A stretch of DNA of 64,000 nt. Source: Escherichia coli (GTDB lineage Bacteria > Pseudomonadota > Gammaproteobacteria > Enterobacterales > Enterobacteriaceae). Numbering within the stretch: the first letter of the stretch is position 1; the number at the start of each line of letters is the position of its first letter. Made by a program: the position numbers. Where the stretch lies: the NCBI RefSeq assembly GCF_030013595.1, contig NZ_CP122768.1; one strand, given 5' to 3'. Positions 39,001 to 42,000 of the stretch are shown here, one piece after another.

Positions 39001-42000
39001 CGGTACGGAAACCGAATTGTCATTAACCCTGCTTGGTCAACATGACGCCGTTGCAGGCGTGGCCTTCCCCTACTTTGGCGGCATTGAAAATCCGCATTTT
39101 CGTAGCGTAAAAAACAATCCTGTCCTGGTGCGTCAATTACCCGTTAAAAACCTGACATTAGCCGATGGCAGCACCTGTCCGGTGGTTAGCGTTTATGATT
39201 TGGTACTGGCGAATTACGGCCTCGATCGCGGGCTGGAAGATGAAAACAGCGCGAAAGATTACGCTGAAATCAAACCGTACACCCCAGCCTGGGGTGAGCA
39301 AATTACCGGTGTGCCGCGCCAGTATATTGAAACCATCGCTCGTGAATTTGCCGATACTGCCCATAAAACGCATGGGCGCTCGATGATTATCCTCGGCGCA
39401 GGTGTTAACCACTGGTACCACATGGACATGAACTACCGGGGAATGATCAATATGCTGATCTTCTGCGGTTGTGTCGGGCAAAGCGGTGGCGGATGGGCAC
39501 ACTATGTCGGTCAGGAAAAACTGCGCCCGCAAACTGGCTGGTTGCCGCTGGCCTTTGCGCTCGATTGGAACCGACCACCGCGCCAGATGAACAGCACCTC
39601 GTTTTTCTACAATCATTCCAGCCAATGGCGCTATGAAAAAGTCTCTGCTCAGGAGTTACTTTCACCGCTCGCCGATGCCAGTAAGTACAGCGGTCATCTG
39701 ATTGATTTCAACGTTCGTGCCGAACGTATGGGCTGGCTACCTTCTGCGCCGCAGCTGGGGCGTAACCCGCTCGGGATTAAAGCTGAAGCCGACAAGGCCG
39801 GATTATCCCCCACAGAATTTACCGCCCAGGCGCTGAAATCGGGCGGTTTACGCATGGCCTGCGAACAACCAGATAGCGGCAGCAATCATCCGCGTAATTT
39901 GTTTGTCTGGCGTTCTAACCTGCTTGGCTCCTCCGGCAAAGGCCACGAGTATATGCAGAAGTATCTGCTGGGAACCGAAAGTGGGATTCAGGGTCAGGAA
40001 CTCGGTGCCAGCGACGGGATCAAACCAGAAGAAGTCGAGTGGCAAACTGCGGCGATTGAAGGCAAGCTCGACCTGCTGGTGACGCTCGACTTCCGTATGT
40101 CCAGTACCTGCCTGTTCTCCGATATCGTTCTGCCCACCGCCACCTGGTACGAAAAAGACGATATGAACACCTCGGATATGCATCCGTTTATTCATCCGCT
40201 TTCTGCGGCGGTCGATCCGGCGTGGGAATCACGCAGCGACTGGGAAATCTACAAAGGTATCGCCAAAGCCTTTTCGCAAGTGTGCGTGGGCCATCTTGGC
40301 AAAGAAACCGACGTGGTATTACAACCACTGCTGCATGACTCTCCGGCAGAACTCTCACAGCCGTGTGAAGTGCTCGACTGGCGCAAAGGCGAATGCGATC
40401 TGATTCTAGGTAAAACTGCGCCCAATATTGTGGCGGTGGAACGCGACTACCCTGCTACCTATGAACGCTTTACCTCGCTCGGGCCATTGATGGACAAACT
40501 TGGCAACGGCGGTAAAGGGATTTCGTGGAATACCCAGGATGAAATCGATTTCCTCGGCAAACTCAACTACACCAAGCGTGAAGGCCCGGCACAGGGGCGT
40601 CCGCTGATTGACACCGCCATTGACGCATCAGAAGTGATTCTGGCGCTGGCACCGGAAACCAACGGTCATGTTGCAGTCAAAGCGTGGCAGGCGCTGGGCG
40701 AGATCACCGGACGCGAACATACCCATCTGGCGCTGCACAAAGAGGACGAGAAGATTCGCTTTCGCGATATTCAGGCGCAGCCACGTAAAATTATCTCCAG
40801 CCCCACATGGTCCGGTCTGGAAAGCGATCACGTTTCCTATAACGCGGGATACACCAACGTTCATGAGTTAATTCCGTGGCGCACGCTGTCGGGACGCCAG
40901 TAGCTCTATCAGGATCATCCGTGGATGCGTGCTTTTGGTGAAAGCCTGGTGGCTTATCGCCCGCCTATCGACACCCGTAGCGTCAGTGAAATGCGCCAGA
41001 TACCGCCAAACGGCTTCCCGGAAAAAGCACTTAACTTCCTGACGCCGCATCAGAAATGGGGCATTCACTCAACCTACAGTGAAAACCTGCTAATGCTGAC
41101 GCTCTCTCGCGGTGGACCGATTGTCTGGATTAGCGAAACCGATGCCCATGAACTGACCATTGTCGATAACGACTGGGTGGAAGTGTTTAACGCCAACGGC
41201 GCGCTGACTGCCCGCGCGGTGGTCAGCCAACGTGTACCGCCGGGTATGACCATGATGTATCACGCTCAGGAACGCATTATGAATATCCCGGGCTCGGAAG
41301 TGACCGGAATGCGCGGCGGCATTCATAACTCGGTCACCCGCGTTTGTCCGAAACCAACGCATATGATTGGCGGTTACGCGCAGCTGGCCTGGGGCTTTAA
41401 TTACTACGGCACCGTCGGCTCGAACCGTGACGAATTCATCATGATCCGCAAGATGAAGAACGTTAACTGGCTGGATGATGAAGGTCGCGATCAGGTACAG
41501 GAGGCGAAAAAAATGAAAATACGTTCGCAAGTCGGCATGGTGCTTAACCTCGATAAATGTATCGGCTGCCATACCTGTTCGGTGACCTGTAAAAACGTCT
41601 GGACCGGACGCGAAGGCATGGAGTACGCATGGTTTAACAACGTCGAAACCAAACCGGGCATTGGTTATCCGAAAAACTGGGAAGATCAAGAAGAGTGGCA
41701 AGGCGGCTGGGTCCGCGATGTCAACGGTAAGATCCGCCCGCGTCTGGGCAGCAAGATGGGCGTAATAACCAAAATCTTCGCTAACCCGGTGGTGCCGCAG
41801 ATTGATGATTACTACGAACCTTTCACCTTCGACTACGAACATTTGCATAGCGCACCGGAAGGCAAACATATCCCTACTGCTCGTCCGCGTTCACTGATTG
41901 ACGGCAAACGGATGGACAAAGTGATCTGGGGGCCAAACTGGGAAGAATTGTTGGGCGGCGAATTCGAAAAACGCGCCCGTGACCGCAACTTCGAGGCCAT

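Follow-up and report, generated by a model that had tools for sequence, protein, structure and literature searches.

A seven-adenine run at the narZ–narY junction of an Escherichia coli strain: a probable second lesion in an amber-interrupted nitrate reductase gene

The window, that is, the whole stretch of E. coli DNA that was analysed (64,000 nucleotides), contains the narUZYWV operon in the gene order narU-narZ-narY-narW-narV (Table 1). The product of this operon is NRZ, the second respiratory nitrate reductase; the main enzyme of this kind is NarGHI. The operon is 99.2% identical to that of strain MEI003 and 99.9% identical to that of HCP5S3_I2, where it is annotated; the start codon of narZ was mapped from the RefSeq annotation of relatives. 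The domain content is that of the alpha and beta subunits of a nitrate reductase: Pfam finds Nitr_red_alph_N (residues 3–40), Molybdopterin (108–831) and Molydop_binding (1086–1200) in the NarZ frame and Fer4_11 together with Nitr_red_bet_C in NarY, and NarG and NarH entries of the PDB are matched at 1e-107. The DNA of narY is identical to narY of HCP5S3_I2, with zero differences over positions 41508–44045.

Table 1. Genes and sequence features of the narUZYWV region (positions are those of the window).
Feature	Position	Strand	Basis and remarks
narU, nitrate/nitrite transporter, intact, first gene of narUZYWV	36292–37680	+	ORF; mapped HCP5S3_I2 annotation; ATG read
narZ pseudogene, nitrate reductase Z alpha subunit, 1246 codons, amber at codon 1043, no stop of its own	37775–41512	+	Translation; narZ of MEI003 and HCP5S3_I2
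Missense CCA→CTA, P878L, window-specific	40407	+	T in the window; MEI003, HCP5S3_I2, M217 and ETEC4068 all differ
Amber TAG (CAG in close relatives), Q1043stop	40901–40903	+	Comparison with MEI003 and HCP5S3_I2
Open frame resulting from stop loss, NarZ residues 1051–1246 plus all of NarY, 710 codons	40925–43057	+	ORF list; translation
Shine-Dalgarno AGGAGG of narY	41499–41504	+	Spacer to ATG 8 nt here, 7 nt in six-A alleles
A7 homopolymer, one A above the reference A6	41507–41513	+	Direct reading; relatives; census
narY, beta subunit, 514 aa, intact	41513–43057	+	ORF; translation; HCP5S3_I2
narW, chaperone, intact	43057–43752	+	ORF; HCP5S3_I2
narV, gamma subunit, intact	43749–44429	+	ORF; one conservative difference (V100/I) from a relative

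At the junction of the two subunit genes the sequence reads GAG GCG AAA AAA ATG. The AGGAGG site is followed by CG (41505–41506) and then by seven A, the last of which is also the first base of the narY ATG (41513–41515). The narZ frame, starting with the ATG at 37775, comprises 1246 codons up to ...QVQEAKK, and the next codon in frame is the narY ATG, which is read as a sense codon; translation of this frame gives ...GRDQVQEAKK-MKIRSQVGMVLNLDKCIGC... and passes into the beta subunit, stop-free at the junction. The old stop codon TGA is now found at 41514–41516, in the +1 frame relative to narZ, so narZ lacks its own stop codon at the overlap with the narY ATG. The presence of seven A instead of six thus takes the narZ stop out of frame and brings the narY ATG into the narZ frame. 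The original prediction had named a run of this length at these coordinates and an in-frame junction without a stop, and direct reading of the sequence bears it out on each point. Since the run length is a discrete sequence state and not a statistical signal, the relevant background for it is its frequency.

K-12 MG1655 (b1468/b1467) shares with the window the operon, its gene order, the flanking sequence, and the AGGAGG and ATG of narY. The K-12 junction, however, has six A (gag gcg aaa aaa tga), and narZ ends at a TGA that overlaps the narY ATG by 4 nt, whereas the window has seven A, no narZ stop and, in addition, the amber codon 1043. The same coupled ATGA overlap with six A is present in MEI003, the best match around the junction, and in HCP5S3_I2, which is the nearest relative when a longer stretch is considered (99.9% identity over 25 kb). 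The arrangement that had been expected, an ATGA overlap that needs six A, is therefore the one found when the run is counted in these three references, and the NarZ length that had been stated, 1246 aa, corresponds to the 3741 nt of K-12 narZ. The extra A in the junction run is the only indel in narUZYWV relative to MEI003 or HCP5S3_I2. With six A in the references and this single indel against two relatives, the testable parts of the proposal made for the junction, either a +1 homopolymer insertion with stop loss or a sequencing artefact, hold. Among the E. coli complete-genome records, none is identical to the window over 421 nt around the junction, the best match reaching 99.8%.

The run lies 610 nt downstream of the amber codon, which had been said to lie in the same gene and does so, as TAG at codon 1043 of narZ. 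At position 40901 MEI003 and HCP5S3_I2 have C where the window has T, which corresponds to a CAG→TAG change, and the 1246-codon frame of narZ is interrupted at this point. This TAG is the only stop in the frame that begins at 37775; after it the frame remains open to the narY stop at 43055–43057, and the ORF list accordingly shows two ORFs in one frame, 37652–40903 and 40925–43057. The frame that reaches narY opens after 40903 and has its first ATG at 40925. The Molydop_binding domain lies downstream of codon 1043, which means that truncated NarZ would be deprived of a whole cofactor-binding domain, and because of the amber a full-length NarZ–NarY fusion is not predicted in this strain. The description of the two genes as fused in frame is correct for the reading frame and fails for the full-length protein. 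Altogether narZ holds three non-silent window-specific changes, namely the A7 insertion, Q1043stop and P878L. Both kinds of lesion by which PGAP labels pseudogenes, an internal stop and a missing terminus, are present in it.

Both lesions are also found separately in other strains. Of 4680 E. coli records, 204 contain the 59-nt context with TAG. PGAP calls narZ a pseudogene with an "internal stop" in M217, the amber record that was opened, and the CAG→TAG change affects the same codon there as in the window; M217 is, however, 96.4% identical to the window here, has six A and keeps the normal ATGA junction. With the seven-A run the picture is similar. An exact match to a 59-nt probe with seven A is found in 4 of the 5353 complete-genome records of E. 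coli, all of them pig ETEC isolates (ETEC4068, ETEC6333, ETEC6334 and ETEC1706). For ETEC6333, ETEC6334 and ETEC1706 the likeness of the junction to that of the window rests on this exact match, ETEC4068 being the one of the four whose sequence was compared with the window. A fifth record with seven A, N4220121, was found by reading the sequence; it has a nearby GTA→GTT change, which places its run on a haplotype other than that of the pig ETEC. In ETEC4068 and N4220121, the two seven-A records that were opened and read directly, PGAP labels narZ a pseudogene "missing C-terminus" and annotates the beta subunit separately.

ETEC4068 (NZ_CP122681.1, L003:814-6096) shares 97.6% identity with the window here and has seven A without the amber, which gives an uninterrupted narZ–narY frame of 1760 codons; RefSeq annotates this frame as a narZ pseudogene and a separate narH. 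The identity values for M217 and ETEC4068 indicate that both lesions lie on different haplotypes elsewhere, and in the window the two may have arisen independently or may have entered by short-patch recombination.

The run also varies in the opposite direction. A probe with five A matches exactly in E24377A only (NC_009801.1, 1642284–1642340), from which it follows that the run length varies both ways, at very low frequency. The records without an exact match to the A7 or A5 probe number about 5350, and those listed, all of them one base shorter than A7, have six A. In metagenome contigs the seven-A junction has 0 exact matches, compared with 40 for the six-A control. Twenty-five E. coli records holding the narZ–narY junction are labelled as plasmids; these could be pieces of chromosome or replicons of very large size.

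One-unit gains or losses in a mononucleotide run, here A5, A6 and A7 in E. coli, are likewise characteristic of contingency loci and programmed frameshift sites. Compared with these, the narZ run is short (6–7 nt), its variants are very rare (one A5 record and five A7 records), there is no sign of reversible switching and the shifted arrangement is not conserved. The change therefore resembles slippage without making narZ a member of that class, and narZ does not qualify as a phase-variable contingency locus.

The rarity of the run bears directly on its reality, because seven A in 5 of about 5350 records, and 0 contigs with seven A against 40 with six in the metagenomes, would fit sporadic error as well as sporadic mutation. 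The strain might truly have six A and a normal ATGA, with the seventh A being a homopolymer miscall in the assembly. A single base of a homopolymer is at issue, A runs of 6–7 nt are classic sites of sequencing or assembly error, and the nearest relative, HCP5S3_I2, has six A. Moreover, neither the exact 710-aa fused ORF nor the exact 1042-aa truncated NarZ is on record in public assemblies, which means that no independent assembly of the lineage confirms the seventh A.

A base-by-base comparison with HCP5S3_I2 allows this to be judged from the quality of the assembly itself. It covers window positions 15101–53970 (38.9 kb) and reveals 33 substitutions, two 1-nt indels, one intergenic indel of 9 nt and an IS200 found in the relative only. 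The 9-nt indel is at 26140–26148, between yddM and fdnI; the insertion sequence (IS200/IS605) lies downstream of the ompC-like porin gene in HCP5S3_I2 and is absent from the window at about 33270. Relative to MEI003, there is also a 12-nt indel at 45436–45447, downstream of yddE.

Of the homopolymers of at least 6 nt in the compared region, 43 of 44 have the same length as in HCP5S3_I2, the exception being the junction run; this agreement speaks against a general tendency of the assembly to homopolymer errors. The other 1-nt indel (49948) concerns a G run in the 3′ tip of the RHS gene. Here the length in the window is the common one, shared with 66 of 71 other records, and HCP5S3_I2 is the odd one, which points to a frameshift or an error in the relative. 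Nor are the inactivating substitution and the private missense change that narZ already carries homopolymer errors. Finally, the probe finds seven A again in four separately assembled ETEC genomes, and its recurrence, with ETEC4068 on a distinct haplotype, indicates that the mutation does occur. In view of these data, we consider a miscall unlikely, albeit an explanation that deserves some weight. Even if the seventh A were an assembly error, the amber alone would still make narZ a pseudogene.

If the run is real, it could in principle have a function. The slippery homopolymer stands at exactly the point where a change of frame is required, and skipping one base after it leads at once to TGA and to the exact wild-type C-terminus EAKK, so that a +1 ribosomal shift or transcriptional loss of one A could restore the stop; alternatively, the two subunits could work as a NarZ–NarY fusion, and the uninterrupted 1760-codon ORF of ETEC4068 would be compatible with this. 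In its fullest form, this proposal takes the junction run to be a recurrent slippage hotspot at which seven A yield an active NarZ–NarY single chain in amber-free strains such as the pig ETEC, or at which +1 slippage to TGA rescues the gene, the remnant in the window giving a NarZ(1051–1246)–NarY chimera by reinitiation at the ATG at 40925. We would attach hardly any credence to this proposal.

In the strain of the window, the amber stops translation 610 nt before the run is reached, and recoding or fusion would need amber suppression at codon 1043 as well. A supE-type suppressor would read a CAG→TAG codon back as glutamine, but the window contains no tRNA genes and gives no hint of a suppressor, and suppression was rejected as the default reading. 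For efficient transcriptional slippage a run of seven A is, besides, rather short. Among relatives the shifted arrangement is not conserved, with 4 of 5353 records by probe and one more by reading. Nothing speaks for expression of the 710-codon open frame.

As to fusion, alpha and beta are separate chains in all solved NarGH structures in the PDB, so a natural alpha–beta fusion nitrate reductase is not represented there. In a database of 5.8 billion proteins, alpha–beta fused ORFs occur in scattered clusters, most of them with a single sequence and of odd length, as would be expected for errors or pseudogenes. A 400-aa query spanning the junction, used to look for a conserved fusion, retrieved only such scattered, mostly single-sequence fragments at about 50–87% identity; the junction-spanning ORFs found elsewhere are mostly single-sequence clusters of 275–700 aa from other taxa. 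The best E. coli match to this query, P0001 (an NCBI partial protein of 613 aa), was rejected as a fusion, being a partial NarZ with an internal duplication. It is a C-terminal fragment of NarZ on a 2.4-kb contig with a tandem duplication of about 150 residues (LNFLTPHQKWG...SNRD twice), which is probably an assembly artefact. On these grounds a recoding site or a fusion enzyme appears very improbable.

Overall, the data favour genuine slippage in a gene already free of selection, and we estimate with a probability of roughly 0.7 that the seven-A run is a real +1 slippage insertion and one of two lesions in a dead narZ. According to this model, a C→T change would have turned codon 1043 into an amber, so that translation ends short of the molybdopterin-dinucleotide-binding domain at the C-terminus; in a separate event, slippage during replication would have added one A to the six A that make up the final two lysine codons of narZ. 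The extra A would push the TGA out of frame and make the 3′ remnant of narZ continuous with narY. Because ribosomes already halt at codon 1043, this stop loss would add little or nothing to the NarZ defect. NarY should still be able to start independently from its own AGGAGG and ATG. The coupling of narY to narZ by termination and reinitiation would be lost, and the 610-nt untranslated stretch may bring some polarity. Judged from the sequence, the net result is likely to be a loss of NRZ activity, which may be tolerable given that nitrate reduction relies mainly on NarGHI. Stop loss of this sort is an ordinary event of a kind already labelled in RefSeq and, in this sense, already known; a literature search on narZ pseudogenes found nothing relevant.

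Two other genes of the window are interrupted by amber codons as well. The RHS gene (49872–54503, minus strand) has TAG at 51168–51170 where a 99.9% identical relative has CAG, and this codon divides the RHS/T6SS toxin gene, leaving ORFs of 1111 aa and 415 aa. TAG at this site was found in 0 of the 119 E. coli records with that 59-nt context, which makes it private to the strain of the window and a second window-specific CAG→TAG change. The gene yddB (TonB-dependent receptor, 886–3258, plus strand) has an in-frame TAG at 1141–1143, codon 86; yddB of HCP5S3_I2 bears the PGAP label "internal stop", a label taken at the level of the gene. Three amber-interrupted genes, narZ, the RHS gene and yddB, are thus found in one 64-kb window, which is probably due to chance, since nonsense codons arise most often by CAG→TAG.

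For annotation, it follows that narZ should be described as a pseudogene with two lesions and that narY, with its ATG at 41513, should be entered as a separate gene rather than as part of a fused ORF of 710 aa or more. Nitrate reductase Z, the enzyme of stress and stationary phase, has probably been lost by the strain, whose narU, narY, narW and narV remain intact. The locus adds one more case to the sporadic, independent inactivation of narZ in E. coli, in which the amber is present in 204 records and the seven-A run in 5, the latter on at least two haplotypes.
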